Source of the DNA: Minisyncoccota bacterium
Lineage (GTDB): Bacteria > Patescibacteriota > Minisyncoccia > Phycocordibacterales > UBA9973
DNA length: 64,000 bases
Direction: 5' to 3'
Assembly (NCBI GenBank): GCA_041675085.1
Contig: JBAYUN010000001.1
Coordinates: 87,347-151,346 of the forward strand
Part shown: piece by piece, positions 25,583-63,413 of the stretch
Layout of the letters: every line of letters starts with the position of its first letter
How positions within the stretch are numbered: the stretch's first letter is position 1
Translations under genes and position numbers: made by a program
The notes under the pieces: generated by a model
Databases searched by the model: none
What the model saw: the letters and a program-made list of their open reading frames with translations, nothing else
What the model was told of the DNA's origin: nothing

Positions 25583-25683
25583 ATATTTACTTGTCCGCCG
25601 TAGCTTTGCGCGAAGGCTGGATTGTTTAAATTAATAAATTCTATTTATAATTCTGTACATAAATCATAATTAGATATGTATAT

Positions 25684-25713: not shown

Positions 25714-25747
25714 AGAAAAAAGAGAAAAACTGTGGATAAGTTATACC

Positions 25748-27022: not shown

Positions 27023-27035
27023 TTTAATATAGAAA

Positions 27036-28526: not shown

Positions 28527-28583
28527 ATAAATCTTATATTACAACAAAATCCTCCAAAAAGCCAGCATTATTATAAATAAAAA

Positions 28584-28615
28584 AGCAGTTTTATATTTAA
28601 TAAAACTGCTTTAAT
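28584..28615 (-). terminator. Intrinsic terminator downstream of the 28627-28983 gene
   Basis: AGCAGTTTTAT/ATAAAACTGCT stem followed on the minus strand by TTTTTTATTTAT. Confidence 0.55.
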
Positions 28616-28626
28616 TCAAATTATTC

Positions 28627-28983: not shown

Positions 28984-29060
28984 TTTATGTAAATTTAAAA
29001 TAACAAAACCAATATTGGTTCTAGATACATAGAAGCATAAATTTATACAAAAATCAATAA

Positions 29061-29675: not shown

Positions 29676-29683
29676 AATATTAA

Positions 29684-30388
29684 TTATTTTATTGTTATGC
29701 TTTTGATAATAACAGGTTCTAAGGGTTTATCACTAGGATCTGTAGGAGTCTTGTTTATATCGTAAACCACTTCCATACCTGAGGTAACTTTACCGAAAAC
29801 TGTATGCTTTGGGTCTAGGAAATTATTGGCAGCTACGTTGATAAAGAATTGACTGCCGTTTGTATTCGGGCCTGCATTTGCCATAGATAGAGTTCCTACA
29901 TCATTCTTGTTTGAAGCGGTGATCTCATCTTCAAATTTATATCCCGGACCGCCAGTACCCCAAGAAGATTTTAAACTATCATCTTTAGATAAAGGGTCTC
30001 CAGCTTGGTTCATAAAGCCTTCTATAACACGGTGAAACTTTGTATCATTATAAAATCCTTGTTGCGCTAATTTTACGAAATTAGCTACTGTTTTTGGAGT
30101 TAAGTCTCCAAAAAGCTCTACTGTAAATGTGCCCTTAGTTGTATTGAATGTTGCTTGCATAGTTTTTTTGTTGTTATTATTAATTTTAATTTCTTCTTGA
30201 TTTTTAATTACTTCTTCTTGATTTGGATTTGTTGTGATTTCATTTTCTTGTGTTTCTGTTTGAATTTCTTGATCTATCACCTTCTCGCTATTTGATAAAT
30301 CTACAGTAGCGACTTTATTTTGAATATAGAAATAAATACCCAAACCCAAAAGACAAATTACAGAAATTACTATTATGATATTCTTCAT
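29684..30388 (-). CDS. Cyclophilin-type peptidyl-prolyl cis-trans isomerase, membrane/secreted
   Basis: FHRVIEGFMNQAGDP, GTLSMANAGPNTNGSQFFI cyclophilin signatures; N-terminal TM. Confidence 0.8.
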   Translation of the reverse strand: MKNIIIVISVICLLGLGIYFYIQNKVATVDLSNSEKVIDQEIQTETQENEITTNPNQEEVIKNQEEIKINNNNKKTMQATFNTTKGTFTVELFGDLTPKTVANFVKLAQQGFYNDTKFHRVIEGFMNQAGDPLSKDDSLKSSWGTGGPGYKFEDEITASNKNDVGTLSMANAGPNTNGSQFFINVAANNFLDPKHTVFGKVTSGMEVVYDINKTPTDPSDKPLEPVIIKSITIK

Positions 30389-30441
30389 CCCGTTAAATAT
30401 TTTTGATTAACTTATAATATAAACACACGTTTCAATTTAAT

Positions 30442-30753
30442 TTATACTTTATTTTCTGAATCATGACTCTCTTCTTTGTTGTGATGTTTCTCTGATTCGT
30501 GACTTGCTTCTTTCTTGTTATCTTCTGCTTGTTTCATTTGAGCTTTGATAACTTCTGGATGCTTTGGCACTATTAGACCCATGAAGAAATAAGCGATAAT
30601 TCCAGGAAAAGCAGCAGTAAACACAGAAAAAATAATATACAAAGCACGTAGAATAGTCGGATCTACGTCAAAGTATTCTCCAAATCCGCCCATAATACCT
30701 AGGACAATTTTATTATCTTCACTTCTATATAATCTTTTATTGTATGTTTTCAT
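30442..30753 (-). CDS. PspC-domain membrane protein
   Basis: RSEDNKIVLGIMGGFGEYFDVDPTILRALYII PspC-domain pattern followed by a TM. Confidence 0.55.
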   Translation of the reverse strand: MKTYNKRLYRSEDNKIVLGIMGGFGEYFDVDPTILRALYIIFSVFTAAFPGIIAYFFMGLIVPKHPEVIKAQMKQAEDNKKEASHESEKHHNKEESHDSENKV

Positions 30754-30790
30754 GCTCTAATTATAGCATTTTTGGCAAGAAAAATATATC

Positions 30791-31552
30791 TTATGATTTT
30801 GGTAGCATTGGTATAAAACGACTGGTTCTTTTCTTGTAGTCTTCAAAGTCCGGATTGCCTTCGTATTTCTTTTCTAGCATAGGTACACCAGAGACAAATA
30901 GTATCAAATAAGTGATAACCAAAGGTCCTAAAATAGTAAATGCACCATACGGCAAGAATAAAGCTATCAAGAAAATTCCCCACCACATAGTCACCTCGCC
31001 AAAGTAATTTGGATGACGACTATAGGCCCATAAACCAGACTGCATTATCTTGCCTTTGTTTTCAGGTTGAGAGATAAAATTCTTCAACTGCCAATCCGCG
31101 ACGCTCTCAAAAATAAAACCAAATATCCAAACAAAAATACCTAAAGTATAAAATATATTAAAATTACTTGGCGCGTTTTCATTAATAAATATTACCGGAT
31201 AAACGATTAAGAATATTAAAAACCCTTGAAATAAGAAAACTTGAAAGAAACTCCTCAAGTAAAAATATTTCCATTCTTTTCTCCAAACTAAGTATCTCGA
31301 GTCTTCACCTTTATTTCTATTGCGCAGATAAATATGAGTAGAGAGTCTTAGTCCCCAAATAGTTACAAAGATATTTACAATTAAAGCTATCAAAGAATAA
31401 CCAGAGAAATAAAATGCTAGCCAAGCCATTAACACAAAACCAAGTCCCCAAGCAATATCGGCGACATCATTTCTTTTCTTTAAAACAGAAATGAAATACC
31501 AAAAAATCATATAAAAATACAAGATAACACCTAAGAATAGATATATACTCAT
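30791..31552 (-). CDS. DUF1295 / ICMT-steroid-reductase-like membrane methyltransferase family
   Basis: [20 protein letters not shown] motif, polytopic. Confidence 0.55.
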
Positions 31553-31947
31553 AAGCCTATTTTAGTAGCTATTAAATAAGTGACAACAGATACAGAGCTA
31601 GCTAGCACCGCTCCCCATACAAGGTCGACGACGGTTACCAATAAAGGCCAGTCTTTCATAGTAGCGAGATTTGTCAGGTCGTAGGTCGCATAAGTAATCA
31701 GACCAAACAAAGCTCCAAATACTAGAGCATGAGTTGGAGAATTCTTGCTAAGAGCTGGCTCTATCACGAAGAGTATAAGCCCGAAGACAAACAAACAATA
31801 AAATAAAATAGCAGCTCCCCAATTTACATCAGGCTTAAGTAAGTGTCCTATCTGATCGCGATAAAAATTCTTGGCGACGAGTCCCAACCAAATCATATCA
31901 ATAATAAAAAATACAGGTAAAGCAATAGCGTATAATTTAATAAACAT
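31549..31947 (-). CDS. Small 4-TM membrane protein (DUF2177-like), overlaps previous gene by 4 nt
   Basis: 132 aa, four TM helices, operon with DUF1295 gene. Confidence 0.4.
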
Positions 31948-31979
31948 AATTATATTATATCTTGTTAATTACAATAACA

Positions 31980-32663
31980 CTACTTAATCTCTTTCAATAC
32001 AGCGTCCAAAATATTTTCTTCTATGAGTTTTGCATAGCCGTCTTTATTTGGATGAATACGATCTTGGAGCATTAGGTCACCATTTAGAAATACACTAGCT
32101 ACCAAAAAAGGAACCAAAGGTAAATCATATTTTTTTGATAAATCTTCATACACAGCGTCAAATTCATTTTTGTATTTAAATCCTGCATTTAATGGTGATT
32201 GCATTTCAAGCATTAATATCTTTGGTTTATTCTCGCCACTTTGCAATATCTGTATTGTACTTTCCATATTACTTTTCATTTCAGATACAGGTAAAGCGCG
32301 CAAGGCGTCGTTGCCTCCAATGCCCCATATAATCATATTTGGTTTTTGATCTCGTATAAAAGCTGCTCGTTCATTATTGCCTTTTGTGGTCTCTCCGCTT
32401 ACTCCAGCATTCACAACTCTCACATCTAATCCTTCGGCTTTTAATCTCTCTTCTAGCTGAGCTGGATAGCTCTCATAAAGAGGCAGACCGTAACCTGCAG
32501 TCAAACTATCTCCAAATGCTACTATGGTATATTTTGAGCCGTCTGTGTTCGTAGCTAGTTCTATATTTTTTGTCTTATCATCACGTAAAAAGAAATACCA
32601 AGCCAGAGCCAAGATTAGAAATACACTTATTAAAATGATTAAAATAATTTTAATGTTCTTCAT
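31980..32663 (-). CDS. SGNH/GDSL hydrolase (TesA-like arylesterase/lysophospholipase)
   Basis: FGDSLTAGYG (block I Ser), GGNDALR (block III), DRIHPNKDGY (block V Asp/His). Confidence 0.75.
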   Translation of the reverse strand: MKNIKIILIILISVFLILALAWYFFLRDDKTKNIELATNTDGSKYTIVAFGDSLTAGYGLPLYESYPAQLEERLKAEGLDVRVVNAGVSGETTKGNNERAAFIRDQKPNMIIWGIGGNDALRALPVSEMKSNMESTIQILQSGENKPKILMLEMQSPLNAGFKYKNEFDAVYEDLSKKYDLPLVPFLVASVFLNGDLMLQDRIHPNKDGYAKLIEENILDAVLKEIK

Positions 32664-35136
32664 AAGATAATAATTCGCGTAATGGTTTTTTTTCAGAACG
32701 CCAAAGCACGGTCGCTAAAATAAATACAAATAATATTATAACACCCAAAGCCAAAATAAGCTCGATATCAAAAAATACAATAGTTTTAATTTTAAAATAA
32801 TATTTTGTAATAAATAAAGCAGATAACACAGCACTAAAATATCCCAAGACACCACTAAATAAAGTAGTCGAAATAGTCTCAAGGTAATATAATCTCTCAA
32901 TAAAAGTCTTCTTTGCTCCGAGGGACATTAACTGCGCACTTTGCTTCCTCCTTCCAGCAAAAGAAGAAAATATCAAAGTCACTATCAAGAATAAAGCCAA
33001 GACTAAAGGAGGTAAAGATATAACGAATATAATGATAAGCAATCCACCTATCAAAGATTCAGCGAAAGTACGTATCTCTTCAGTATCTATAATAGAAATA
33101 TTTGGGAAATTCTTTGCTAAGAAATTGGTGAATTCATTTTTCTCTTTATCGTCTAAATATGTATAACCGAAAAATGTCGCTGGATATTTCTCAAGATCAA
33201 TAGTATTGAAAACAAAATAGAAAAACGGCAGACCACTCCTCGAATCAGATTCGCGAATACTGGTCACTGTACTTTCTATCTCAAAACCTGAGACAGACAA
33301 GACTACAACAGATCCGACGTCAATATTAGCCCTGTCTGCAAACTCTTTCTCGACAGATACTTCATTGGTCTTATTAGATAACCAAGACCCTTTGACTATC
33401 GTCTCATTTGGTAATAACTCCTGACGATAGGTCAGATTGTACTCTCTACCGAATTCCCTACTCACTGATCCATCAGAGAGAGCTATACCTCTTTGAATAT
33501 CAAGGTCATCTATCGATATAATCCTCGCGCCAACATTTGGGAAAAGAGTCACATCAGTGAAATTCTCTCTAATATTTTCAGTTTGTGATTTTTGAATATC
33601 TATCACATACACAGACGGCAGTCTCTCACCTAGATCACGTTCGATAAAATTCCCGATAGTGGATTGCAAAAGTATCAAAAGAGATAATGAGAAAAGTGCT
33701 ACATACAAAGAAGTCAGAGATACAATACCAAAAAGTCCGTCTTTGTATTTAGAAGATATTAGAGTTCGATTTAGGAAATTAAATTTATTTCTCTTTTTAT
33801 AAAGGAATAAAATTAAATAATAAAATACTACAGCTAAAATAAGATATATCAGAATAATAGCTAGAATACTAAGTAGTCCATACCAAAAACTTTCAAGCAA
33901 AAATATCGCAATAATGACCAAAGGTATCAAAGCCGACAATGTTACGATTATAAAATTTACAAATAAATTCTTTTCTTTGGTTTCTTCGCCTCCTGATAGT
34001 AAAATCTTTGGATTTAATTTCATCAAAGTTCTCATACTCGGCACAAAAGAAGAAAATGAAATACTAAAAACTACAAGCAAAGTAAATAAGACAGGTATCA
34101 ATAGATTTACGAAAGGCAAAACTAAACCAAAATTGAGAGAGATATAATCCAAGATAAAATTAAATAATAAAATAGACAAACCTCCACCAAATAAAATAGA
34201 CAATACTAAAATATAAAATAAAGAAAAAGATAAAGTAACAGCCAATTGTTTTTTGTTGAAACCTATCGCTATCAATACAGCGAAACTCTTACGCATAATA
34301 CTTAGAAGGTACAACATTCCTGCATAAATATTCACCGCAGATAAAATACAAGACAAGAGTACAGCCAATACTAAAAATTGCTCAACAAGAGACAAACCTT
34401 CGACAAAACCAGACTGAGTAACGCCAGCGATATCTATCTGCACACCGAGATCTTTAGCTCGAGCTATCACGTCATTTAAAGCTGACCTATTTGCGTCTTC
34501 TATCAAAAAGACATAAGTATATTCAGATCTCAAGAGAGATTTATCGATATTCACACTCTCAAAACCAGCCTTGCTCAACAAGACTTTCGGTAAAAAATTA
34601 AAACCAGAAAGAAGAGATTTGCTATCTTTTTCTATAATACCCTTCACAACGAAAGGCATATTCGCATAGATTATCTCTTCGCCCACTTCTACGTCTAGTT
34701 TTATTTTAGCGTTATTGTCTATGTAGATTTCATTATTTTTTGGGGTCTCATATGCCTCACCTACGATAGATAGTCCGCCATACACAGGATAAGATTCATC
34801 AACAACAGTGATAGATACTGGAGTATTTAATTCCCCTTTAGTCAAAATTCCTGAGAAATCATATTGACTAGAAAATTTTAAAATTTGAATATCATCTCCT
34901 AGAACTGTATCTAGATTCTCAGTTGTTAGTTCATAATTTGATTCGATAGCGATATCACCTCCGACCAATTCTTTATTCTTATCTTCCAAGAACTGCGAGC
35001 TCGAAGTTGTAAAAAGCAAAACCACGAAAACAATAAGCGTAGTAAAAGTCAAAGATAAAAAAGGTAATACAAATTTTCTCCATTCACGAAAGAGTATACG
35101 AAAACTGTATTTAAATATTGTTTTTAAATTAAACAC
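32650..35136 (-). CDS. FtsX-family ABC permease with two 4-TM FtsX repeats (YbbP-like)
   Basis: 828 aa; two large extracytoplasmic loops each followed by an FtsX-like TM bundle. Confidence 0.65.
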   Translation of the reverse strand: MFNLKTIFKYSFRILFREWRKFVLPFLSLTFTTLIVFVVLLFTTSSSQFLEDKNKELVGGDIAIESNYELTTENLDTVLGDDIQILKFSSQYDFSGILTKGELNTPVSITVVDESYPVYGGLSIVGEAYETPKNNEIYIDNNAKIKLDVEVGEEIIYANMPFVVKGIIEKDSKSLLSGFNFLPKVLLSKAGFESVNIDKSLLRSEYTYVFLIEDANRSALNDVIARAKDLGVQIDIAGVTQSGFVEGLSLVEQFLVLAVLLSCILSAVNIYAGMLYLLSIMRKSFAVLIAIGFNKKQLAVTLSFSLFYILVLSILFGGGLSILLFNFILDYISLNFGLVLPFVNLLIPVLFTLLVVFSISFSSFVPSMRTLMKLNPKILLSGGEETKEKNLFVNFIIVTLSALIPLVIIAIFLLESFWYGLLSILAIILIYLILAVVFYYLILFLYKKRNKFNFLNRTLISSKYKDGLFGIVSLTSLYVALFSLSLLILLQSTIGNFIERDLGERLPSVYVIDIQKSQTENIRENFTDVTLFPNVGARIISIDDLDIQRGIALSDGSVSREFGREYNLTYRQELLPNETIVKGSWLSNKTNEVSVEKEFADRANIDVGSVVVLSVSGFEIESTVTSIRESDSRSGLPFFYFVFNTIDLEKYPATFFGYTYLDDKEKNEFTNFLAKNFPNISIIDTEEIRTFAESLIGGLLIIIFVISLPPLVLALFLIVTLIFSSFAGRRKQSAQLMSLGAKKTFIERLYYLETISTTLFSGVLGYFSAVLSALFITKYYFKIKTIVFFDIELILALGVIILFVFILATVLWRSEKKPLRELLSYEEH

Positions 35137-42197: not shown

Positions 42198-42235
42198 AAG
42201 CCTTTTCATTAATTAATGAAAAGGCTTTTTATTTT
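42198..42235. terminator. Intrinsic terminator (14-bp stem AAAGCCTTTTCATT/AATGAAAAGGCTTT plus T-run), likely bidirectional
   Basis: Read directly. Confidence 0.55.
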
Positions 42236-42265
42236 GCCAATAAATTGAATAAACATCTCTTACCG

Positions 42266-43060
42266 TTACAACCTTTTTAAAATATCTTTTTTATAATGCT
42301 TCAAATAAGCCACAAGGATAAAGCTAATAATAACCAACAAGAACCATGAAGTTATCTTAGACGTTGAGACCACGGACCATTGATGAATTTGACTCGGATA
42401 TTTCCAAGCACCGAAATACGTAGCGATATTCTCTGCGATCCAGATAAAGAAAGCGATAAGCAGAAAGGCGACGTTCATATACATAGAGCGGACTTTATTT
42501 GTCACAATAAAATTAACTTTAGTTTTAAAGAATAAAATAAACACAAAGAATATCAAAAACCAACGGGCGTCATATATATAATGATTGGTAAAGAAGTTCA
42601 AATAAATCAAAGCACATAAAATCACGCTAAGAAGATAATGTTTATAATTCACGAGTTCTAATTTCATAATCTTCCAAGACTGACTGATATAACTACCTAC
42701 CGCTGCATACATAAACCCACTATATAGAGGCACAGTACCTATTTTAAAGAATCCCTCTTCCGGATAACTCCAAGAAGCAACTCCTGGACTCGTCTTGTAG
42801 AGTTCGAGCACAAGACCGATAATGTGGAAAAGGAATATTACTTTAACCTCATCTTTAGTTTCTAATTTTGTAAAATATAAAATAGCTTGAATGACAACAG
42901 CTGAAATAAAAAGAAAATCATAACGAGCAAAATTTTCTAAAGGAATATAATTTGAAATAAAAAGTAAAATAAAAAACAAGCCCGCAAATATAGACGCTCG
43001 GGCTTGTTTGATACCAAAAATCCAAAATTCGTAAATATAATTTTTAAACTTGCTCGACAT
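42266..43060 (-). CDS. Polytopic membrane protein (DUF817-like)
   Basis: 264 aa, about 8 TM. Confidence 0.4.
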   Translation of the reverse strand: MSSKFKNYIYEFWIFGIKQARASIFAGLFFILLFISNYIPLENFARYDFLFISAVVIQAILYFTKLETKDEVKVIFLFHIIGLVLELYKTSPGVASWSYPEEGFFKIGTVPLYSGFMYAAVGSYISQSWKIMKLELVNYKHYLLSVILCALIYLNFFTNHYIYDARWFLIFFVFILFFKTKVNFIVTNKVRSMYMNVAFLLIAFFIWIAENIATYFGAWKYPSQIHQWSVVSTSKITSWFLLVIISFILVAYLKHYKKDILKRL

Positions 43061-43475
43061 ACTTTTTAAAATTCTCGAGTATTGCAGACCAGCCTGCTTT
43101 TTGAAGTTCTACGCTATTAGTTTCTTCTGGGGAGAATTCTTCTACTATTTTAGTATCACCGTTTTCTAAAGTTGAGAAAAATATATCGCATTCTCTGTTA
43201 TTTTCTTCCCCTTCAGCTTTATCCATAACATATTTAATACTTTTATATTCTTCTACTTCTGTATATGTACCAGTAAAATCAAAACTCTCACTACCGTCTT
43301 TGGCAGACATGCGAGTCAAAAATCTCCCACCCACCTTCAAGTCATTCTCAGCATGAGGGCATTCCCAAGTATCCGTAGCAAAAGCCCAACTTTTAATACT
43401 TTCTGGATCGTTCCAGTGTTTCCAAACTTTTTCAATATTTGCATGCACAATTGTTTCTATATGTATTTTTTGCAT
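43044..43475 (-). CDS. SRPBCC / AHSA1-like (activator of Hsp90 ATPase homolog) domain protein
   Basis: IETIVHANIEKVWKHWNDPESIKSW...FDFTGTYTEVEEYKSIKY pattern. Confidence 0.55.
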   Translation of the reverse strand: MQKIHIETIVHANIEKVWKHWNDPESIKSWAFATDTWECPHAENDLKVGGRFLTRMSAKDGSESFDFTGTYTEVEEYKSIKYVMDKAEGEENNRECDIFFSTLENGDTKIVEEFSPEETNSVELQKAGWSAILENFKKYVEQV

Positions 43476-43496
43476 AATTTTATTATACTACGAAAT

Positions 43497-43865
43497 TTAA
43501 GATTTTAATTTCCCAGATTCTTCTTTTAATCTATGTTTAATAATCTTGGTAATCAGCGATATTGGCAAGGGCTTATCATAAGGAAACCGGATGCAACCTT
43601 TTGAATAGCTAATCCCCTTTTTAGCCAGTTCTTCCTCAAAAGGTTTTATGCCTGACGGAGACGGATAGAATCCGAGATGCCCTTTCATAGCAGCATAATG
43701 CACAAAGTTCTTGCTATTGAGCTCTACAGTCGGCATACCATATTTTATAGATTCTACGCCTTTTGGGACAAGTTTGTTTACCAAAGTTCGCATTTCTTTT
43801 AATTTAGGCAGAAAATCTTTTGGTGTGTCTTTTATGTATTCATTTATATTTTTGTAATTTTTCAT
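43497..43865 (-). CDS. DUF1801 (YdhG/YjdC-like) protein
   Basis: INEYIKDTPKDFLPKLKEMRTLV...KYGMPTVELNSKNFVHYAAMKGHLGFYP...GCIRFPYDKPLPISLI. Confidence 0.55.
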   Translation of the reverse strand: MKNYKNINEYIKDTPKDFLPKLKEMRTLVNKLVPKGVESIKYGMPTVELNSKNFVHYAAMKGHLGFYPSPSGIKPFEEELAKKGISYSKGCIRFPYDKPLPISLITKIIKHRLKEESGKLKS

Positions 43866-43876
43866 ATGTATTTTTT

Positions 43877-44251
43877 TTAATTAATCTTAACCTTTCGTAA
43901 AATTTTCTCCATATCTCGCCCTTTTGCCAATTCGTCTACCAATTTATCCAAATACCTAACTTTTTGAGTTAAAGGATTTTTAATATCTTCAATTCGATAA
44001 CCACATATCATCCCTTTTATTAAATGTGCATTTTGATTTATTTTTGCCTTATGGAAAAATTCTTCAAAAGTAGCTTTGTTGTTTATAAATTTCTTTAGAT
44101 TAGTTTCGGTATATCCTGTGAGCCATTTGATAACCTTATGTAGCTCTTCTTTTGTTCTACCTTTCTTCTCTACCTTTATTACATAATAAGGATAAACAGA
44201 AGAAAAAGTCATCCCCGCCATACGTTCATCATGCTTTTTTAAATCTTTCAT
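43877..44251 (-). CDS. DUF2200 family protein
   Basis: MAGMTFSSVYPYYVIKVEKKGRTKEELHKVIKWLTGY matches DUF2200. Confidence 0.6.
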   Translation of the reverse strand: MKDLKKHDERMAGMTFSSVYPYYVIKVEKKGRTKEELHKVIKWLTGYTETNLKKFINNKATFEEFFHKAKINQNAHLIKGMICGYRIEDIKNPLTQKVRYLDKLVDELAKGRDMEKILRKVKIN

Positions 44252-44292
44252 AATTTTATTATATCAGATTATGTTTTATAAAATCTAGAATT

Positions 44293-44712
44293 TTATAGCT
44301 TTAAATACACTTCGAAAGCATTTGCTAAATTATCTATAATATTATAATTCTTATAGTCTTCTGGTCTAATCCAGATATACTCATCATGATCTTTACTTAA
44401 AACTATATTTTCATTCAAAGTTTCGCAAACGAAATATACACCTATCACTTGCCAGTTCTCGTCTTTAACTTTTGGTCTCCATTCCCCAACGCAAAAAGAT
44501 TGCAAAACTTGAATCTCTAAACCAGTCTCCTCATAAACTTCCCTTTTCAAACTCTCTTCCAATTTCTCTCCGGGTTTTATTCGTCCTCCTGGGACGTCAT
44601 ATTTAGCAAAATTAGTCCCATCTTCATAACTTGAAGATTCTTTCAATATCAAAATCTCTCCTTTTGTATTTTTAATAAAACCTTTACTCGCGACGAATAG
44701 TTTGTAATCCAT
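44293..44712 (-). CDS. NUDIX hydrolase
   Basis: Nudix box GGRIKPGEKLEESLKREVYEETGLEI. Confidence 0.75.
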   Translation of the reverse strand: MDYKLFVASKGFIKNTKGEILILKESSSYEDGTNFAKYDVPGGRIKPGEKLEESLKREVYEETGLEIQVLQSFCVGEWRPKVKDENWQVIGVYFVCETLNENIVLSKDHDEYIWIRPEDYKNYNIIDNLANAFEVYLKL

Positions 44713-44719
44713 GCTTTTA

Positions 44720-45238
44720 TTATATTAAATTTAAAGATTTATAATCCTTTATTAAACTTAAAGCTGTTTGTTTTTCAGTTGGGTTTTCTATATTATCTGC
44801 CCAGTTAGTTGCTTCAGTCAAATCGTCATTTGCCAAAAAATATAATAATTTTGTTATTTGATTCGAATTACGATTATCTTTATATTCAAGAGCTTTAGTT
44901 GAATACAATTTTGCTTTTTCTTTATCTTTCTTTTGAAAAAGAGCGCAACTAGTAGCGTGATGATACCAAAACCAAAGTATCGATTCTTTAGTATCTTTTT
45001 CTTCTTTTGTTAAACCAATATCTCCAACATTCTCTATCAAATTTTTAATTTTATTTATAATCAAATCAGAGTCCTCATAATCCCAAGAATAACTATCCAT
45101 CAATCTTTGATCTTCTTGAAAATACAAATCATGCAATTCTGCTGAATTTAGAACATCAAAAGTAGAATAAATAGAGTGCAAAGGACTTTCGTTTTTAGGT
45201 AAATCCCCTTCTGAATTATTTGTAAATGATTCTTTCAT
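44720..45238 (-). CDS. Hypothetical helical (TPR-like?) protein, 172 aa
   Basis: ORF with own leaderless promoter; no motif. Confidence 0.4.
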   Translation of the reverse strand: MKESFTNNSEGDLPKNESPLHSIYSTFDVLNSAELHDLYFQEDQRLMDSYSWDYEDSDLIINKIKNLIENVGDIGLTKEEKDTKESILWFWYHHATSCALFQKKDKEKAKLYSTKALEYKDNRNSNQITKLLYFLANDDLTEATNWADNIENPTEKQTALSLIKDYKSLNLI

Positions 45239-45270
45239 GCTTTTATTATACTATAAATTTAGAATTTATT

Positions 45271-45293
45271 TTAGCAAGGACGGTCCTTGCTAA
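45271..45293. repeat. 23-bp perfect palindrome TTAGCAAGGACGGTCCTTGCTAA, copy 1 of 3
   Basis: Identical copies at 45271-45293, 48381-48403 and 49258-49280. Confidence 0.7.
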
Positions 45294-45296
45294 TTA

Positions 45297-45335
45297 ACAA
45301 AACCCTTACTCGCGACGAATAGTTTGTAATCCATG
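45297..45335 (-). repeat. Duplicate (37/38 nt) of the NUDIX gene start plus upstream; forms a 14-codon remnant ORF (MDYKLFVASKGFVN) that ends inside the palindrome
   Basis: aaaacc[t/c]ttactcgcgacgaatagtttgtaatccatg present at 44677-44712 and 45297-45335. Confidence 0.65.
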
Positions 45336-45346
45336 TTTTGATTATA

Positions 45347-45742
45347 CTACAAATTCTCATCAAGGAACTTTTTTAAAGCAATCAAATCTTTCTTTTCTTT
45401 GTCATAATGATAAGAAATAATTCCTACTGATTCGGCGGATTTTGCAGCATCAGAATTGTGTTCAAAATAAATAACATCATTTTTATCAAAATTATATGTA
45501 TCAAGCAAGGTTTTAAAATAAACAGGTTCTACTTTATCAGGATTATGCTTCATTGTAAAAACAGGATAAGGCACAGAATCAAGACCAAATTTAATGATTT
45601 GCTCATCGTCAGCATTAGTTAGGATAAGTTTTGGATTTGGATATGTTTCAAGTAAATCAAATAATTCTTTATATTGAATATAATTACCTGCCTCGTTTTT
45701 TAGAATTATAGTATTCACCGCATCAATAAGTATCGTTTTCAT
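45347..45742 (-). CDS. Small HAD-like fold protein with degenerate motif I (putative)
   Basis: ILIDAVNTI (DxxxT instead of DxDxT), VIYFEHNSDAAKSAESVGI motif-IV-like; weak. Confidence 0.3.
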   Translation of the reverse strand: MKTILIDAVNTIILKNEAGNYIQYKELFDLLETYPNPKLILTNADDEQIIKFGLDSVPYPVFTMKHNPDKVEPVYFKTLLDTYNFDKNDVIYFEHNSDAAKSAESVGIISYHYDKEKKDLIALKKFLDENL

Positions 45743-45754
45743 ATTTTTATTATA

Positions 45755-46081
45755 CTACAATCTAAATTCAAAATTAATAATCTTAACTTCTGTGTCTTTA
45801 TTTACTTTATCTCCATAGAATTTCTTAAAATCCGAATACATATCTTCATCAGAATCATACCGAGCGTGCCCTACCCAGTCTTCTTCATTCAAAGTACCAA
45901 GGGTTTTAATTTTAAGAGAAATTATTTTCCCATATCCAAAAGTCTCAAGAGTTTCTTTGTTTATAAATTCAAGCTCATCCCCAAGTTTTAAATCCTTATC
46001 ATCAAAAAGCCTCCAAGTAGTAGTCTTTTCTCCTGTCAGTATTTTATCAACTAAATCTGAATTAAATTTTATGGGTTTCAT
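45755..46081 (-). CDS. ASCH (PUA-like) domain protein
   Basis: VDKILTGEKTTTWRLFDDKDLKLGDELEF resembles the ASCH core. Confidence 0.45.
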   Translation of the reverse strand: MKPIKFNSDLVDKILTGEKTTTWRLFDDKDLKLGDELEFINKETLETFGYGKIISLKIKTLGTLNEEDWVGHARYDSDEDMYSDFKKFYGDKVNKDTEVKIINFEFRL

Positions 46082-46095
46082 TATATTGCTTACAT

Positions 46096-47022
46096 TTAAT
46101 TATTGATATATTTAGGAAATACCAACTGGAACATTTCAGCCTCTTTTAACAACCATTCAAAGTAATCGCTCCATTTAGCCTCATTTTCAAAATCACCTTT
46201 TAGGGAAATCTTAATTCTACTAGCCTTCTTGTTAGGTAACTCCATCCATTCTAATTTTTCATTTAATTCACCTTCTATTTTATCTTTATTACTCAAGATA
46301 TTAGCATACAGCTCTTTATTATTTGAGATATAAATCTCTACACCAAGAAACCCGTCTCTTGAATTAAGAGTCAAAGAAAGACTACATTCACTGCTACCAA
46401 TACTTATGTTTGTCCAATGTTGAGGATAACTTTTTTGAAAACGCAATTTAGTATTATTTTGTTTTGCAAAACTTTTGAATTCATCCCAAAATTGAAGTTG
46501 TTTAATTTTAGTTTCAGTTAGCTCTAAACTTTCAGTAGTACTCTTTAAGACTTTTGCCCAATCATTGGGCTTTGAAATTATTTCAAACTTAGGAGCAAAA
46601 GGAGAATCAGCAATTTGCCAAAGTTCTATCTTTAACAAATAGAAACCAATCTCTTCATTGGTATTTTCATTAAGCCAGTCTATTGCTTTTCTATGTTCTT
46701 CTCTAACATCCTTAACTACCCATAAAATAATCCTTGCATCATAACCAGAAGCATAAGTGATAAGTTTACCTAAATGATCATGATTAGTTATCTCTAACTG
46801 ATTTTCAATAATTATTTTATGACCAGTACTTTCTTCTTCTGCCAGAATATCAACATTAAAACTCCCAACTTTTGCTTCAGTCTGAATTAATTTTATGTCA
46901 AAACCAATTTCATCACCCAAGAGATCAAGATTTTCTTCTTGTGCTAACCATTTAGTAAAGTCATTAGCTTCATGTTTCCAACCTTCACGTAATTCAATTT
47001 TTTTAAGTTTTCCTAAATTCAT
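46096..47022 (-). CDS. PD-(D/E)xK / NucS-like nuclease-fold N-terminal domain plus DUF4268-like C-terminal domain protein
   Basis: ELREGWKHEANDFTKWLA..LGDEIG..IQTEAKVGSFNVDILAEE..GHKIIIENQL (D..E.Q) pattern. Confidence 0.4.
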   Translation of the reverse strand: MNLGKLKKIELREGWKHEANDFTKWLAQEENLDLLGDEIGFDIKLIQTEAKVGSFNVDILAEEESTGHKIIIENQLEITNHDHLGKLITYASGYDARIILWVVKDVREEHRKAIDWLNENTNEEIGFYLLKIELWQIADSPFAPKFEIISKPNDWAKVLKSTTESLELTETKIKQLQFWDEFKSFAKQNNTKLRFQKSYPQHWTNISIGSSECSLSLTLNSRDGFLGVEIYISNNKELYANILSNKDKIEGELNEKLEWMELPNKKASRIKISLKGDFENEAKWSDYFEWLLKEAEMFQLVFPKYINN

Positions 47023-47310
47023 ATTAATATTTATTAATGTTTTATTAATTTACCTACATATCCCTAATAAGTTCCAATTTCTTGTCTCTACTCCATCGCT
47101 TCAACTCCGCCTCTCGTTTTCTGGATTCGTTATATGTCTCGAATTCTTCTTTGTATTTTAGGATTACTGGTCGGCGGATTTTTGTATAATGGGCACCAGA
47201 TTTTGAATTATTATGCTATACCAATCTACGTTCTAGGTTATTTGTAGACCCTACGTACAAGGTTTTGTCTTTGCATTCTAAGATATAAACAAAATACATA
47301 ATAAGTAAAA

Positions 47311-47706
47311 CTAAAAATTACCGCTCAAGTACAAACCTAAAACTGTCATAGACAGCATAAGAATAGCAGGAATACTTTTTACAAAAGAATCTCTGACTTT
47401 AATATGCATACCGATAGCTCCAAGCATAAGGATAGCTAGGATTGCCAAAGCAGGCAAACCAAACAAAGCTAAAATATTTGCACTAAATAATCCGAGAATC
47501 ATAACGAGAGATATTGCTAGTTTTAAAAAGCCAACAATATACATAAACCAAACAGGTAGACCATAAGCAGAGAATTCTTCTTGCATGTTTTTTGCTCCCG
47601 CGCCACGATATTTTGTAGCCATAGAGAATCTCAAAATCCAAACATTAATAAGTCCAAAAGCAATGATAATTTGCAAAAAAGGCAGAACGAAAATATTTAT
47701 TTCCAT
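47311..47706 (-). CDS. DoxX-like 4-TM membrane protein
   Basis: 131 aa, four TM helices. Confidence 0.45.
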   Translation of the reverse strand: MEINIFVLPFLQIIIAFGLINVWILRFSMATKYRGAGAKNMQEEFSAYGLPVWFMYIVGFLKLAISLVMILGLFSANILALFGLPALAILAILMLGAIGMHIKVRDSFVKSIPAILMLSMTVLGLYLSGNF

Positions 47707-48011
47707 ATGAAAAAAATTATTAATAATATATACAAATTATCAACTAATATACATCGCTTTGCAAGGGTTTTAAATCTATTTAAATATCTAGTGCTTATAG
47801 CTATTAGTCAAAATGCACACTAGTTGTTTGCAATATAATTCTCTACTGCATGAATATCGATTAACTGATGTGGATGTTCATCGTCAGCTAGTTCTTTTTT
47901 ATAAGCAACTAAATCACGAGGATCAATAAGTGAAATTTCAATAGCATTGATTGTTTTAGATATTGTGGGGAATTTTCTAAAATGATCTTTTGTTTGAAAC
48001 CATTCTGTCTG

Positions 48012-48332
48012 CTATTTATTACTCATTTTCAAAGTATCAATATCTGTAATATCAATATCTTGATTATTATAGTTTAAACACAAGGTATCGCAATCCCACT
48101 TTGCATTTAAATAATGTTTTGGTCCAGAAGTAATATAATCTTTAGCTTCCGAAACGATGATAGGAAAATATTCTCCAGGCAATGAAAAATCTAAATCATT
48201 TACAGGACGAGATGAGCCATATACATGCGCAGCAAACCCTCCTCCAATACGGTAAGGTATATTGTGTTTATTTAATATACCTACGATCCATTTAAGTGCA
48301 TTTATTGTTTTTTCTTCTAATTTTATTTCCAT
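48012..48332 (-). CDS. ANT(2'')-like nucleotidyltransferase, N-terminal 106 aa; an in-frame TAG is followed by a further 63 open codons (47823-48011), so this is a disrupted gene or read-through candidate. ATG start at 48332 (MEIKLEEK); ORF track used an upstream TTG.
   Basis: IPYRIGGGFAAHVYGSSRPVNDLDFSLPGE is close to the ANT(2'')-Ia core LPLWIGGGWAIDARLGRVTRKHDDIDLTFPGE; downstream frame checked codon by codon. Confidence 0.5.
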   Translation of the reverse strand: MEIKLEEKTINALKWIVGILNKHNIPYRIGGGFAAHVYGSSRPVNDLDFSLPGEYFPIIVSEAKDYITSGPKHYLNAKWDCDTLCLNYNNQDIDITDIDTLKMSNK

Positions 48333-48380
48333 AAGAATATTATAATACAATCAATTTATTTTTTTGAGTTTTAGCGAGTT

Positions 48381-48403
48381 TTAGCAAGGACGGTCCTTGC
48401 TAA
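48381..48403. repeat. 23-bp palindrome copy 2, with tandem GCTAAAACTC duplication at one end
   Basis: Read directly. Confidence 0.7.
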
Positions 48404-48434
48404 TTATTTCCATATGAAAAAAATTATTAATAAT
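48404..48434 (-). repeat. Duplicate of the DoxX-like gene start region (47697-47727), giving a 9-codon remnant (MEIISKDRPC) that runs into the palindrome
   Basis: tttccatatgaaaaaaattattaataatat present twice. Confidence 0.6.
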
Positions 48435-48510
48435 ATTTTAAGTATACCATTTCGACCGTACTTGAGCACCTTTAAAAGCAGTAAATTTAAGTTATTTTTT
48501 ATTAATCTAC

Positions 48511-49209
48511 CTAAGAGGTAAATCTACATTTTGGAAAGGCTGAACACCCTAAGAATTTACCAAACTTACCTTCTTTTTCCAAAAGCTCATTGCCACATTT
48601 AGGACAAACTTGTTTAATATTATTTGCTTTAACAGTATCAACCTTTTTAACATTTTGAGCTATCCTGACATATTCAATCAACTTAAAGCTATCAACAAGT
48701 TCTATTGGTTTATCTTCTGCGAATTTTTCTGCTTCAAGAGTAAATTTATTTGTTGTTATAAAATACCCTTTACCATTCGCAACATGATCTGCTAATGCTC
48801 CATAAAAATCTCTCACAGCTCCAACTGGTACTTGGCTAGTGATGAACTTTTTACATTGTATGTAATTTATTATTCCGTTTTTTTCTGCAGTGACATCAAT
48901 TCCCCCATCATGTGACCTACCGACAGCATTTGTCTTATAGCCAAGTTGAAAGAAAAGATCAGCTATATATTTTTCAAATTCATTTGATTTCATTCCTCTA
49001 AGTTGCTGTAAAAGTTCTCTATCAGAACGCCATTCTTGACCATTTTTTATATTTCTTTTTCTTTTCCATTCAGCAATTTTATCTGGAACAATAACTTCAA
49101 GTAATATCTTTAATAACAATAATAATCCTAATCCAACCCAAATAGGCCATAAAGCAAAAAATCCGTGTAAAAAACTTTTATACAAAACAGAATAATCAAT
49201 AATTTGCAT
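48511..49209 (-). CDS. Membrane-anchored Mrr-type restriction-endonuclease catalytic domain protein with C-terminal topoisomerase-type C4 zinc ribbon
   Basis: GRSHDGGIDVTAEKNG..INYIQCKKF..VPVGAVRDFYGAL..KGYFITTNKFT (Mrr_cat pattern); CPKCGNEL..CSAFPKC zinc ribbon. Confidence 0.6.
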   Translation of the reverse strand: MQIIDYSVLYKSFLHGFFALWPIWVGLGLLLLLKILLEVIVPDKIAEWKRKRNIKNGQEWRSDRELLQQLRGMKSNEFEKYIADLFFQLGYKTNAVGRSHDGGIDVTAEKNGIINYIQCKKFITSQVPVGAVRDFYGALADHVANGKGYFITTNKFTLEAEKFAEDKPIELVDSFKLIEYVRIAQNVKKVDTVKANNIKQVCPKCGNELLEKEGKFGKFLGCSAFPKCRFTS

Positions 49210-49257
49210 AATTATATATTATCATAAAAGTGACAAAAGTGACCCAAAAGCAATACT

Positions 49258-49280
49258 TTAGCAAGGACGGTCCTTGCTAA
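49258..49280. repeat. 23-bp palindrome copy 3, with tandem TAATTAGCAAG duplication at one end
   Basis: Read directly. Confidence 0.7.
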
Positions 49281-49324
49281 TTACTTGCTAATTACAGATT
49301 TTTTAATACAATTTCTACTTATTT

Positions 49325-50221: not shown

Positions 50222-50357
50222 TGCTGTGATGATTGAGCTAGAACCCCATGGCTCCGTACCCTGTAATATTATTTTTAATACTTATATTGTATCATTTCTA
50301 CACTACTTGAGCACGTCAAAAAGTGACAAAAGTGACACAAATCAAGAAAAAATAAAA

Positions 50358-60828: not shown

Positions 60829-61491
60829 CTAATCTCGCAATTGCCAAAGAATCAAATCCAGTATTTTAACTTTAGTGATCTTGCTTGTTTCTGTTATGTT
60901 GGTGTAAGGATATTTTAAGTTAAAGTAATCAAATATATTCTTAGCACCTTCTGTTGGAATAAATTCTTCGAAAATGTCTACTAACTTATTATAAAAATTT
61001 TCTGTTTTTTTAAGTCGATCTGAAATATCTTCTAATGCACTTATTTCTTGGTATTCTTCGTTAATAGAAAGATTTATCCTAATCCATTTATCTATTACTG
61101 GTAAATTAGGATTGATGGTTGCTAAAAGCTTACTAGAAAATGAAGCATCTACAGTGTTTGTTTTTGTATATAGAATTTTGAGTATTTCTCCAAAATCTTT
61201 TTTCTGTTCCTTTGAAATTTCTAATAGAGTAAAATACTCTTTTTTCCAAGAAATATCTTTAAATCGAATTCCATAAAAATTGCTAAACATTTCTTGAAAC
61301 AAAATGTCTTTACTTGGGTTTGTAAGATGTAAGCATCGTTGAATGCTTAGATATTGTTTTAGACCTTTCTTTGCATTTGTTAAAATAGATTCAATTTTTG
61401 ATCCTTTTTTTGATTTGTTGACAGTGAGATCAGAATTCAAAATTCCGTATTCAATAAATAAATCTTGAATGATATTTTGTTTTGTATTCAT
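60829..61491 (-). CDS. Hypothetical protein, 220 aa
   Basis: Clean ORF. Confidence 0.4.
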   Translation of the reverse strand: MNTKQNIIQDLFIEYGILNSDLTVNKSKKGSKIESILTNAKKGLKQYLSIQRCLHLTNPSKDILFQEMFSNFYGIRFKDISWKKEYFTLLEISKEQKKDFGEILKILYTKTNTVDASFSSKLLATINPNLPVIDKWIRINLSINEEYQEISALEDISDRLKKTENFYNKLVDIFEEFIPTEGAKNIFDYFNLKYPYTNITETSKITKVKILDLILWQLRD

Positions 61492-61775
61492 AAACTTTGG
61501 ACGGTTTTATTTAGCCAAGTGGTAGCAAAAAGCTCCTAGCCAGGCCGACTACACCCTTGAGTGTAACCCATACCCCTTTCGAGATATGACCGTCCAAAGT
61601 AGCTCTGACTAAGAGTTCTTTACTTTGGACGGATTTATGACCATATCCTATAAACATTAAGGTTTTTAGGGGTTAGGTCGCTTATTAAGTTATAAAATAA
61701 TTCTAGCACATTTCAAGTGCTTTTGACATCCTAGCTTAGATTAGGAATTAGTGGTAATTAGTTACCAACAGATGA

Positions 61776-63413
61776 TTAAAAACCAAGCTTACGGTTCTTT
61801 AGTCTTCGAGTTACCAACTTAGCGTGAATAGTCTTAAGTTGGGCAATTTCTTCGTTACTCATTTTATAATAATCTTTTAAGATTATTTCGTCGGTGTATC
61901 TAAGTACATCTTTGATGCCAACTTTAGTTCTTAGCATATTGTCTAGTTTTTCTAACTGAGATTGTTTAATTTTTTTACAGTAAGGTATGGAGAGGTTTTT
62001 ATATTCATTAGGAGTTAGCTCAAGAACACCGCCACCATAATAACGACCTTCTAATTCAGCAAATATTAAAGTTAAAGTGTTATAGAAAGAAAATACTAAA
62101 TCGCTAACCTTATTCTCGTCTTTCATTCTAATTCTATAAAAAGCGTCAGTCACATACGACTTCGCTTCGTTCATAGCCATTCTCGGAAAGAGATTAGATC
62201 TCTTTGTGAAAATTCCTTCTGAAACCCAAACTGATGGAACAAAATACCAATTATTACGCAGTTTACATTTGTATCTTTGGTCTATTAATCGATCTTCTCC
62301 AATTTTTAAGTACTCTTTAGCTTCTTTTGAAAAAGATTTTTGATTAACGTCTTCAAATCTTAAAAAGAAAGCGGGTTTACCTCTTTTGGAAATATTTTTT
62401 TGATCAACCTTTGTAAAATTGTTTGTAGATGGCATTAATGAGCCTTTTTGTAGAATTGGTTTTGCTATATTTTGAAGTTTATATTTTTCCACAATTTCTT
62501 TATCTACTATAAAGTAGTCATTCGCCGCAGTAACAATACCTACCTCGGCTCGACAGTAATTCTTGATAGGCAAAAATCGAGTCTTAAGAGTATCTAAAAA
62601 TTTTAGTTCCTTATCCAGCAAAATATAGTTAGTCCATTTATCAAGAGTTTGTCTATGAATATTACTATTCTCTTCTACATAGGTAGGTTCTTTTAAATCT
62701 TCTAGTTTATCTACATGGTAAAAAGAGACACCGGGTGTTTGTTTTTTTGCACAAATCAATATTATTACATCTTGCTCGATGTCAGGAAAAATAAGTTCAT
62801 TAAAAGCAAATATTTCAATCTTCTGAAAGTTGTCTCTTAAGTAACCTCTAAGCTCTTTAGCATATATAACCTGCAACAGCTCAGCTGGTAACACGAAACA
62901 AATAACCCCATTCTCGTTAAGAGACTGAACACCTGAAATAAGAAAACTAGTCCAAATGTTTTTTATACTTTTAGGACTCAAATTTGCTCCCTTATGAATT
63001 GCTTCACAGGATTCAATTTGTTTCTTTGTTAGGTAGTTACTTTTTATATATGGAGGATTACCTATAACTAAGTCAAACTTCTTTTTGTTCTTCTTATTAA
63101 ACTCTAAATAATCTTCATTAAAATAGTTAATTTTCTGTGAAGCAAGGAGACGCTTCTTGTTTTTCTTTTTTGAAATTTCTATTTCCTCCTTATCTTTTTC
63201 AATAGCATCTATAGTTATATTTTTAGGAAGCTTGAATCTTCCCTTAAACGTAGTATTGGAAAACATGGAATCAAAAAAGTTTCCATCACCAGAGCTTGGC
63301 TCTAGAACGTTTATACTGTTACTGAAATCATATTTATCAAACAAATGAAAAACTATGAAATCTGCTAGTAACGAGGGCGTATAATATGCACCATTTTCCT
63401 TGTTTGATATCAT
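61776..63413 (-). CDS. Gamma-class N6-adenine DNA methyltransferase (Eco57I/TaqI-like) with C-terminal target-recognition region
   Basis: GAYYTP (motif X), LEPSSGDGNFF (motif I), VIGNPPYIKS (motif IV) in X-I-IV order. Confidence 0.8.
   Translation of the reverse strand: MISNKENGAYYTPSLLADFIVFHLFDKYDFSNSINVLEPSSGDGNFFDSMFSNTTFKGRFKLPKNITIDAIEKDKEEIEISKKKNKKRLLASQKINYFNEDYLEFNKKNKKKFDLVIGNPPYIKSNYLTKKQIESCEAIHKGANLSPKSIKNIWTSFLISGVQSLNENGVICFVLPAELLQVIYAKELRGYLRDNFQKIEIFAFNELIFPDIEQDVIILICAKKQTPGVSFYHVDKLEDLKEPTYVEENSNIHRQTLDKWTNYILLDKELKFLDTLKTRFLPIKNYCRAEVGIVTAANDYFIVDKEIVEKYKLQNIAKPILQKGSLMPSTNNFTKVDQKNISKRGKPAFFLRFEDVNQKSFSKEAKEYLKIGEDRLIDQRYKCKLRNNWYFVPSVWVSEGIFTKRSNLFPRMAMNEAKSYVTDAFYRIRMKDENKVSDLVFSFYNTLTLIFAELEGRYYGGGVLELTPNEYKNLSIPYCKKIKQSQLEKLDNMLRTKVGIKDVLRYTDEIILKDYYKMSNEEIAQLKTIHAKLVTRRLKNRKLGF

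Follow-up and report, generated by a model that had tools for sequence, protein, structure and literature searches.

Introduction

Repetitive extragenic palindromes (REPs, REPINs) and the REP-associated tyrosine transposases (RAYTs, or TnpAREP) are known from Enterobacteria and Pseudomonas (Nunvar 2010; Bertels & Rainey 2011; Ton-Hoang 2012; Messing 2012, PDB 4ER8). Classical REPs have a conserved tetranucleotide, GTAG (or CGTC), at one hairpin foot (PMC3479197, PMC3733652), are species-specific, and belong with RAYTs that are vertically inherited (PMC5581495). The E. coli enzyme, TnpAREP, catalyzes strand transfer, and its covalent intermediate, it was suggested, might in principle be resolved by any single strand that ends in a 3'-OH (PMC3479197). 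The pair has been studied almost only in Proteobacteria, where it is present in high copy number, and our literature search found no paper on REP/RAYT in the candidate phyla radiation (CPR; Patescibacteria), which is not proof that none exists. Here we describe three identical 23-nt palindromes, REP1, REP2, and REP3, within a 64,000-nt stretch of a CPR chromosome, that of a Minisyncoccota bacterium (assembly GCA_041675085.1, contig JBAYUN010000001.1, positions 87,347 to 151,346; hereafter the window).

We judge it quite likely that these palindromes are REP-type hairpins, the substrate of a RAYT-like family of HUH/Y1 single-stranded DNA (ssDNA) transposases that is widespread in CPR bacteria, and that they mark the joints of gene cassettes. 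They belong to an element family that is spread over unrelated sites and lineages and is specifically linked with a RAYT-like gene. The element is absent from sister strains, lies at homology breakpoints, and recurs elsewhere in the same layout of repeats.

The palindromes of the window

The sequence examined comprised the window and 11 kb beyond its ends, 75 kb of the contig's 529 kb. The 23-mer TTAGCAAGGACGGTCCTTGCTAA occurs in it at three places (Table 1), exactly as an earlier note, made from the letters of the window alone, had reported; no match arose in 100 dinucleotide-preserving shuffles, and no further palindrome was found in the window or in the 11 kb beyond it. The word “perfect” in that note holds for the two 11-nt arms but fails at the single centre base (G on the plus strand), where, the length being odd, the reverse complement differs. 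A 27-nt unit, TTTAGCAAGGACGGTCCTTGCTAATTA, which adds four flanking bases to the 23-mer, is common to all three copies, and all three have the same orientation, on the G-rich strand. This uniformity is compatible with a strand-specific process, and three copies are too few to weigh.

The palindrome is indeed a GC-rich hairpin in an AT-rich genome (48% G+C, compared with 33% for the window), and the fold computed for it as ssDNA, a 10-bp stem closed by a 3-nt loop, has an energy of −9.3 kcal/mol (z = −7.4). The tandem duplications of an arm end that had been noticed at two copies are present at REP2 and REP3 and measure 10–11 nt each; a like “stutter” of an arm is found at the fetched loci L003, L004, L012/L085, L019, and L051. 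The local genes lie on the minus strand. In gene direction each copy comes after a stop codon and precedes the ATG of the next gene by 32, 45, or 48 nt with a TATAAT-like box in between, and all three copies are intergenic except for the relic open reading frames (ORFs) described below.

Such a position between a stop codon and the next promoter, coupled with the stable fold, is what would be expected of an RNA or DNA hairpin that serves transcript ends or mRNA stabilization and is neither mobile nor recombinogenic, and classical REPs of E. coli stabilize the mRNA upstream of them. At all three copies, however, the hairpin is followed by no T-run on either strand (the gene strand continues AATAAA, AACTCG, or AGTATT, the other strand TTAACA, TTATTT, or TTACTT), in agreement with the earlier statement that it is not an intrinsic terminator. 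At five other loci (L003, L005, L009, L017, L086) the element adjoins a canonical terminator rather than replacing one, and its identity across lineages with transposases just 40–46% identical, its in-frame copies, and its bracketing of a transposase gene, all described below, require more than a local RNA function. We therefore regard this explanation as highly improbable, while a transcript-end or stabilizing role could be a secondary use of the element.

A palindrome family of CPR genomes

A search for the 23-mer that left the centre base free but allowed no other mismatch gave 19 stretches of species-representative genomes, 52 metagenome stretches, and not one viral contig. CPR groups (Paceibacterota, Staskawicz-, Taylor-, Nomura-, and Colwellbacteria, Saccharibacteria) are named in 17 of the 19 record titles, the other two reading only “uncultured bacterium”. 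Removal of duplicates left 61 distinct sites with unrelated flanks. Among the species representatives there are one to three exact copies per genome, as against three in 75 kb here, and the fetched parts of a 130-kb contig, Ga0114931_10000031, hold at least four.

Relaxed searches revealed variants that preserve arm complementarity (GGAC/GTCC to GAAC/GTTC; TTAG/CTAA to CTAG/CTAG; TTCG/CGAA) around a core, GCAAGRAC-N-GTYCTTGC, that does not vary. The foot of the stem is canonically TTAG...CTAA on both sides, with the variants CTAG, ATAG/GTAG (L030), TCAG, TTCG, and CTCG, and the flanks, compared at 19 of the sites, contain no conserved target beside the element. Where orthologous occupied sites have diverged, the flanks are 82% identical and the element is identical at 23 of 23 positions, indicating that its sequence is being kept constant. 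The exact element also recurs across lineages, as named in the record titles, whose transposases are only 40–70% identical.

Six of the 61 distinct sites lie inside long ORFs, where ten copies, representing six independent genes, are carried in-frame (Table 1). These copies use only the frame that is open on both strands, so that a peptide LARTVLA(K/N) results whichever strand is translated, and the centre base occupies the wobble position of the Thr codon. In the RNase R gene, which carries the element twice, the second copy lies in an 11–12-residue segment that is absent from the B. subtilis and E. coli enzymes, and the first in a segment of 3–4 extra residues relative to the same two proteins.

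A transposase gene beside the palindrome

Gene-by-gene inspection of the loci revealed a single recurrent neighbour, a protein of ~227 aa with the start M(L/F)RKD.F.TGEYYHIYNRG. A homologue of this protein lies within 150 nt of the palindrome at 13 of the 61 distinct sites; by our own estimate, one such gene in a genome of ~1 Mb would leave ~0.06% of random positions that close. In the reverse test, four homologue loci picked only for their long contigs all proved to have family palindromes on both sides, the upstream one starting 51 nt before the ATG in each case and the downstream one lying at or just after the stop codon. Palindrome copies also flank the gene in L003, L007, L014, L036, L044, L047, L074, and L087. 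Arrays of three to six copies at ~45–75-nt spacing stand right upstream of the gene at L030 9641–9972, L003 4574–4691, and L060 6401–6543.

The protein matches Pfam Y1_Tnp (E 2e-9 to 2e-5), and all 35 members compared with NCBIfam match one model only, that of the REP-associated tyrosine transposase (NF047646; best E 5e-9), the IS200 model giving only 16 bits. Alignment of an 83-member profile with E. coli K-12 RayT by hhalign (E 4.6e-5) placed H85-F86-H87 on the HUH motif (E. coli H59-M60-H61) and Y146 on the catalytic Y115 (residue roles in PMC3479197); a W..SS motif downstream of Y146 is common to the family and E. coli RayT. Across 83 diverse homologues, N84, H85, H87, and Y146 each reach a conservation of at least 90%. 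A fold search with a structure predicted by AlphaFold from a diverse alignment gave PDB 4ER8, a RAYT bound to a REP hairpin, as the best match, with the TnpA proteins of IS608, ISDra2, and IS200 next; the predicted fold fits RAYT, including a C-terminal part that is absent from IS200 TnpA. PDB sequence searches with the family profile returned marginal matches only. The family comprises more than 7,500 proteins at E < 1e-5 in an indexed search, and 515 clusters at 50% identity with E <= 1e-30 among representatives. Judged by motifs and predicted fold, the closest relative of the protein is RAYT, of which it is a distant branch, putatively RAYT-like in action.

At 12 of 16 RAYT loci (Table 1), in the 90 nt ahead of the ATG, the right arm of the palindrome gives a TTGC(T/G)N −35 box 16–17 nt from a TATAAT/TATACT-like box, which itself lies 6–7 nt before the ATG, as in a leaderless-type promoter. 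The upstream palindrome thus appears to supply the −35 box of the transposase promoter, suggesting that the transposase may be autoregulated by its own hairpin site.

The same observation could be turned into a different explanation, namely that the palindrome is a double-strand site of a dimeric regulator, or a portable promoter element, that is conserved in CPR bacteria and lies at joints only incidentally. The symmetry is perfect up to the centre base, the variants change symmetrically as half-sites would, and the −35 box (TTGCNA in the 12 of 16 loci) could serve autoregulation. Yet across the 61 sites the adjacent genes are unrelated, coding sequence contains six independent copies, and in the window no copy is placed as a −35 box for the gene that follows. 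Only a Y1 transposase recurs as a neighbour, and the structure closest to it has a REP hairpin bound; neither the stuttered arms nor the homology breaks at the element would be expected of an operator. This explanation is accordingly considered improbable, and a RAYT-like substrate remains our reading of the palindrome.

Relic gene starts and strain breakpoints

Directly upstream, in gene orientation, of REP1 and REP2 lie relics of a NUDIX and a DoxX gene start, respectively, which run up to the palindrome as the earlier note had seen (Table 1). The NUDIX relic ORF, MDYKLFVASKGFVN (45334..45290), terminates at a TAG within REP1, and the DoxX relic ORF, MEIISKDRPC (48413..48381), terminates on the last TAA of REP2, both stop codons being provided by the palindrome. 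The intact NUDIX gene begins 622 nt past its relic and the intact DoxX gene 707 nt past its own. Between the NUDIX relic and the intact copy there are 5 differences in 56 positions, and at 3 of them the relic matches the allele of a related strain, L034; the stub is, from this pattern of differences, a putative diverged allele and not a fresh duplication.

Relic gene starts of this kind resemble mis-joins, and the contig is a MEGAHIT assembly (ENA ERZ27247358, record name k141_557398), which raises the question of metagenome assembly chimeras formed at a short repeat. A repeat of 23–27 nt is far below the final k-mer of 141, however, and a separate assembly from a second sample (L021, SRR6484325) matches window 42199–47726 at 99.98% identity over 5.5 kb, relic and REP1 included, demonstrating that the REP1 joint is not an assembly artefact. 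Other contigs with these proteins were grouped as similar places. Chimeric joints can be dismissed almost entirely.

In gene orientation, the window reads: 298-aa gene, REP3, Mrr nuclease, DoxX stub, REP2; nucleotidyltransferase-like ORF, DoxX and GIY-YIG, then DUF4268, ASCH, and HAD, NUDIX stub, REP1; 172-aa gene, NUDIX, and DUF2200, then DUF1801, AHSA1, and DUF817. L034, with a NUDIX protein 91% identical, shared blocks at 92–93% nucleotide identity, and no family palindrome, reads: RVT and a remnant of the 298-aa gene, four other genes, DoxX and GIY-YIG, AAA_15 and DUF4276; 172-aa gene, NUDIX, and DUF2200, a 985-aa gene, then DUF1801, AHSA1, and DUF817. Homology with L034 begins at window 45270, the base adjoining REP1, and ends at 49294, the edge of the partial duplicate at REP3. 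At L034 951–2161 a reverse-transcriptase (RVT_1) gene stands in place of the 5' part of the 298-aa gene, of which a ~200-nt 3' remnant is left.

Since the 172-aa and NUDIX genes already adjoin in the palindrome-free L034, their adjacency is older than REP1, and the NUDIX stub either arrived with the DUF4268-ASCH-HAD block or arose at the joint. The earlier idea that the palindrome truncated the NUDIX start in place must be abandoned in favor of a joint relic, and an insertion of REP plus 172-aa gene into NUDIX is ruled out on the same grounds. The comparison of strains that the note had called for gave a difference in presence: family palindromes are absent at the fetched loci L034, L035 (NUDIX 71% identical), and L089–L094 (HAD-like protein 81–89% identical), the neighbours in L089–L094 differing from those in the window. 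A parental HAD-NUDIX arrangement was not found in the three closest HAD contexts.

This part of the window is a strain-variable cassette island, with or without palindromes. Between HolB and DUF1801-DUF817 there are ~27 kb of accessory and defence genes here, compared with ~8 kb in the relative L089, and the three palindromes, all of one subtype, sit where blocks of different ancestry meet. The island continues through window 52–64 kb and past the window end (L095 1–9413, beyond 64000) with SMODS, DUF6602, a large serine recombinase (L095 4978–6255), a 772-aa HATPase_c_3 protein, an Eco57I-like methyltransferase, and a ParB-methyltransferase.

The serine recombinase, ~17 kb away, belongs among the arguments for a site-specific recombinase cassette site, whether attC-like or recognized by that enzyme; others occur in L001 and L022, and the surrounding genes are small, co-oriented, and accessory and vary between strains at fixed junctions. 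In contrast, no integron-type tyrosine recombinase was found in the ~62 of 75 kb with precomputed Pfam annotation (window 20761–34292 being without it), the cassettes bring promoters of their own, and the palindromes, perfect and without differences between copies, do not resemble attC. The cassettes of L034 differ at the same junctions without any palindrome, and recombinase genes are not recurrent neighbours of the element, whereas the Y1 transposase is. Such a site is, in our view, about as unlikely as the regulator site.

The suggestion of a miniature mobile element or recombination site, on the other hand, agrees with the many unrelated sites, the copies inside coding sequence, the absence from related strains, and the position at breakpoints. 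A palindrome found only here, with unrelated flanks in other genomes, had been named as grounds for giving up that suggestion. The palindrome is present at 61 distinct sites; the flanks are unrelated there, which does not speak against mobility because a mobile element predicts it. As to cassette shuffling, the element lies exactly at homology breakpoints, but the shuffling step itself we infer.

A recurrent layout and how it might arise

At two joints of the window the upstream side of the palindrome is a stub, consisting of promoter and first codons, and the intact gene lies one cassette downstream. The layout of direct repeat, REP, insert, and direct repeat is found in three further places. 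In L051 an 86-nt repeat (100% identity) surrounds an insert of a methyltransferase, a degenerate REP, a toxin-antitoxin pair, and an ORF fragment, with a REP at its end. In L078 two REPs lie between two copies of a gene's 3' end (36 nt at 89% by BLAST, ~48 nt at ~83% by eye). In L074/L086 a 33-nt repeat (100%) itself includes the variant REP ahead of the transposase gene. We take the stubs to be scars of REP-associated recombination, as the layout suggests. The staggered-cut target-site duplication was rejected as their origin given that the repeats are too long (33–86 nt), vary in length, and in two cases have diverged; the three differences that the NUDIX relic shares with the other strain's allele also disfavor it.

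By analogy with E. coli TnpAREP, the enzyme would bind a hairpin extruded in ssDNA, nick near the hairpin foot, and stay on the 5' end through a phosphotyrosine bond, and the enzyme-bound 5' end would then be rejoined to another 3'-OH. In a first route, the REP end would be transferred onto a 3' end within a homologous partner, either the sister chromosome or DNA taken up from another strain, yielding “stub, REP, insert, intact gene”. Natural competence is commonly attributed to CPR bacteria. In a second, a circle excised between two REPs would re-integrate by homologous recombination in a piece of neighbouring gene that it carries; the segment REP3, Mrr gene, DoxX stub, REP2 would be a candidate for such a module, the Mrr gene being flanked by REP3 on one side and the DoxX relic with REP2 on the other. 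A third route would be a REP-by-REP exchange between strains, one of which had the gene disrupted. All three give the same product, and the data cannot discriminate between them.

Comparison with known systems

The resemblance to REP/RAYT includes a short hairpin palindrome between genes, a transposase gene bracketed by its own palindrome, the HUH and catalytic Tyr motifs, the best structural match to 4ER8, and a TAG-containing tetranucleotide at the foot of the stem. Unlike classical REPs, the CPR palindrome is a perfect 11+1+11 without bulges, the same 23-mer occurs in several CPR lineages, and copies lie in-frame inside genes, so that its location is not strictly extragenic. With IS200/IS605 elements and their non-autonomous derivatives, palindrome-associated transposable elements (PATEs), it is likewise a Y1 HUH transposase that acts on ssDNA hairpins. 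The present element differs from IS200/IS605 in having the same perfect palindrome on both sides rather than distinct left and right imperfect ends, in lacking a tnpB-sized ORF beside the gene at the four reverse-test loci, and in lacking a conserved tetra- or pentanucleotide target.

Rickettsia palindromic elements (RPEs), which Ogata et al. are said to have described in 2000, reportedly insert in-frame in protein-coding genes and are tolerated as an extra peptide. They share the in-frame habit with our element. RPEs are 100–150 bp long and, to our knowledge, have no known transposase, whereas our element measures 23 bp, is read as LARTVLA, and comes with a candidate enzyme. Shyamala, Schneider & Ames reportedly found REP sequences at the join points of Salmonella chromosomal duplications in 1990, and Arbiol et al. 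are said to have described the promoter stem-loop (PeSL) cassettes of T4-type phages in 2010. In these systems, too, short repeated hairpins border duplicated or shuffled segments, with a promoter and then a small accessory gene coming after the hairpin. There, one copy of the repeat recombines with another; here, in contrast, the repeat stands at one end only of a segment flanked by 33–86 nt of duplicated, unrelated target sequence. A phage PeSL or phage origin was rejected on the absence of viral-contig matches, the window being CPR chromosome, from a contig with proteins that NCBI assigns to Candidatus Paceibacterota. Integron attC sites resemble the palindrome in being folded sites that separate accessory cassettes of like orientation in an array that varies between strains. 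Unlike attC, there are no IntI, attI, R/L boxes, or extrahelical bases, the palindromes are perfect and mutually identical, and the cassettes, unlike those of integrons, have TATAAT promoters of their own. CIRCE, dif, parS, and uptake sequences were set aside on spacing, copy number, and context.

Several observations count against interpreting the palindromes as REP-type hairpins at cassette joints. The foot is symmetric, without the one-sided GTAG tag of classical REPs, and there are few copies per 100 kb rather than hundreds per genome. The protein is ~60 residues longer than classical RAYTs, the extra part being C-terminal, and the NF047646 scores are all below the curated cut-off of 80 bits, with 29 bits for P0002 and 43 bits for the L007 protein. 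The earlier note had pointed to a hairpin transposase such as IS200/IS605 TnpA; a Y1/HUH gene is bracketed in other CPR genomes, but no RAYT homologue lies in the window or the 11 kb beyond it, and with 75 of 529 kb seen, the cognate enzyme of this genome is unconfirmed, although we infer that one is encoded. The layout occurs at only 5 of ~64 sites, and its flanking repeats, 33–86 nt long and two of them diverged, fit no documented product of a Y1 enzyme, which makes no target duplication. Among the loci compared, no empty site with clean boundaries was found, all spanning matches carrying the 23-nt element, so that insertion is deduced from comparison with distant homologues. Finally, the NUDIX relic is almost as far from the intact copy as the L034 sequence is, a distance that acquisition from a different strain would explain no less well than an old event at the locus. 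The system is best filed beside REP/RAYT, as a variant that departs from it in tag and RAYT score and perhaps in location and copy number.

Other features of the island

The coordinates of the features are collected in Table 1. A GG..S..DLD motif in the ORF downstream of REP2 suggests a nucleotidyltransferase fold. Two neighbouring cassette ORFs contain an in-frame TAG, at window 47216–47218 and 48012–48014. In the first of these, the GIY-YIG gene (47054–47299, minus strand), the TAG codon is CAG (Gln) in L034, where the gene is intact; recoding of TAG is unlikely for GIY-YIG, given that a point nonsense mutation suffices. Both ORFs are probably recent pseudogenes; ORF 47820–48335, which is without a comparator, may alternatively have a recoded TAG.

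Table 1. Positions of the palindromes, relic gene starts, and cassette genes in the window, and loci of palindromes elsewhere
Feature	Position	Strand	Description
REP1	45271..45293	.	Minus (gene) strand reads TAA-TTAGCAAGGACCGTCCTTGCTAA-A; exact match
REP2	48381..48403	.	Identical palindrome, between DoxX relic and nucleotidyltransferase-like ORF
REP3	49258..49280	.	Identical palindrome; exact match
REP2 arm-end tandem duplication	48366..48385	.	GAGTTTTAGC twice
REP3 arm-end tandem duplication	49273..49294	.	CTTGCTAATTA twice
NUDIX relic (H_A')	45294..45349	-	Promoter and first 41 coding nt; repeats 44672-44727, 56 nt, 91%
NUDIX matching segment (H_B')	44672..44727	-	Head of intact NUDIX gene (44293-44712; Pfam NUDIX)
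DoxX relic (H_A)	48404..48436	-	5' leader and 10 coding nt; repeats 47697-47729, 33 nt, 100%
DoxX matching segment (H_B)	47697..47729	-	Head of intact DoxX gene (47311-47706; Pfam DoxX_2); same sequence in L034
172-aa gene	44720..45238	-	Between REP1 and NUDIX; no Pfam match; NUDIX adjacency ancestral
Nucleotidyltransferase-like ORF	47820..48335	-	Between REP2 and DoxX; in-frame TAG; no Pfam match
Mrr-type restriction endonuclease	48511..49209	-	Top1-type zinc ribbon; Pfam Mrr_cat, Zn_ribbon_Top1
In-frame copies	L010 3770 and 4703; L016 5005; L006 5189		RNase R twice (L010); TsaC/Sua5-like (L016)
Other in-frame copies	L043 4424; L055 3235; L071 1949		L043 copy also in L050, L058, L072
Palindrome-borne −35 box	L013, L003, L007, L022, L026, L030, L033, L036, L040, L044, L056, L074		RAYT loci

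Island genes are commonly preceded, on the gene strand, by TAGTATAATAAAA(N2)ATG (43465–43497, 44241–44263, 44710–44731, 45228–45260, 45734–45764). With the −10 box only ~7 nt before the start codon, island transcripts are probably leaderless. This shared start motif also inflates apparent “duplications” of gene starts. Window 50265–50341, upstream of the 298-aa gene, is paralogous to 49226–49248 and 48420–48478, on the two sides of the Mrr ORF, with a twice-occurring GTCACTTTT box at 96% identity and GTGCTCAAGTA...GAAATG.TA.A.T at 75%; the region looks as though a copy of the promoter region of the 298-aa gene had received the nuclease ORF as an insert.

No tRNA was found in the window, and its single Rfam match is a LOOT RNA (RF03000) at 61547–61679 on the minus strand, which covers the full-length model at 79 bits, compared with a gathering score of 46, and sits in the 284-nt gap between ORFs 60829–61491 and 61776–63413, the latter an Eco57I-like methyltransferase gene. 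In window 1–20000 the cumulative GC skew has its maximum at ~16 kb, coinciding with a flip of gene orientation from plus to minus. A DnaB gene lies just ahead of the window start (L096), and the switch in skew and orientation is possibly a replication landmark.

Implications

An exact substrate of 23 nt is unusually small and hence convenient for biochemistry. For annotation, the element explains the short LARTVLA inserts in essential genes and the orphan ORFs that consist of gene starts. If the joints are products of the enzyme, they would offer a testable route for the turnover of cassettes in the islands of genetically intractable organisms. It is also conceivable, although we consider it rather doubtful, that the REP/RAYT pair of CPR bacteria acts as a one-ended device for cassette capture, by strand transfer or through REP-bounded circles. 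If so, this would be a mode of gene shuffling that has not been described for any Y1 transposase, and it could help to explain the hypervariable islands in the tiny genomes of CPR bacteria.

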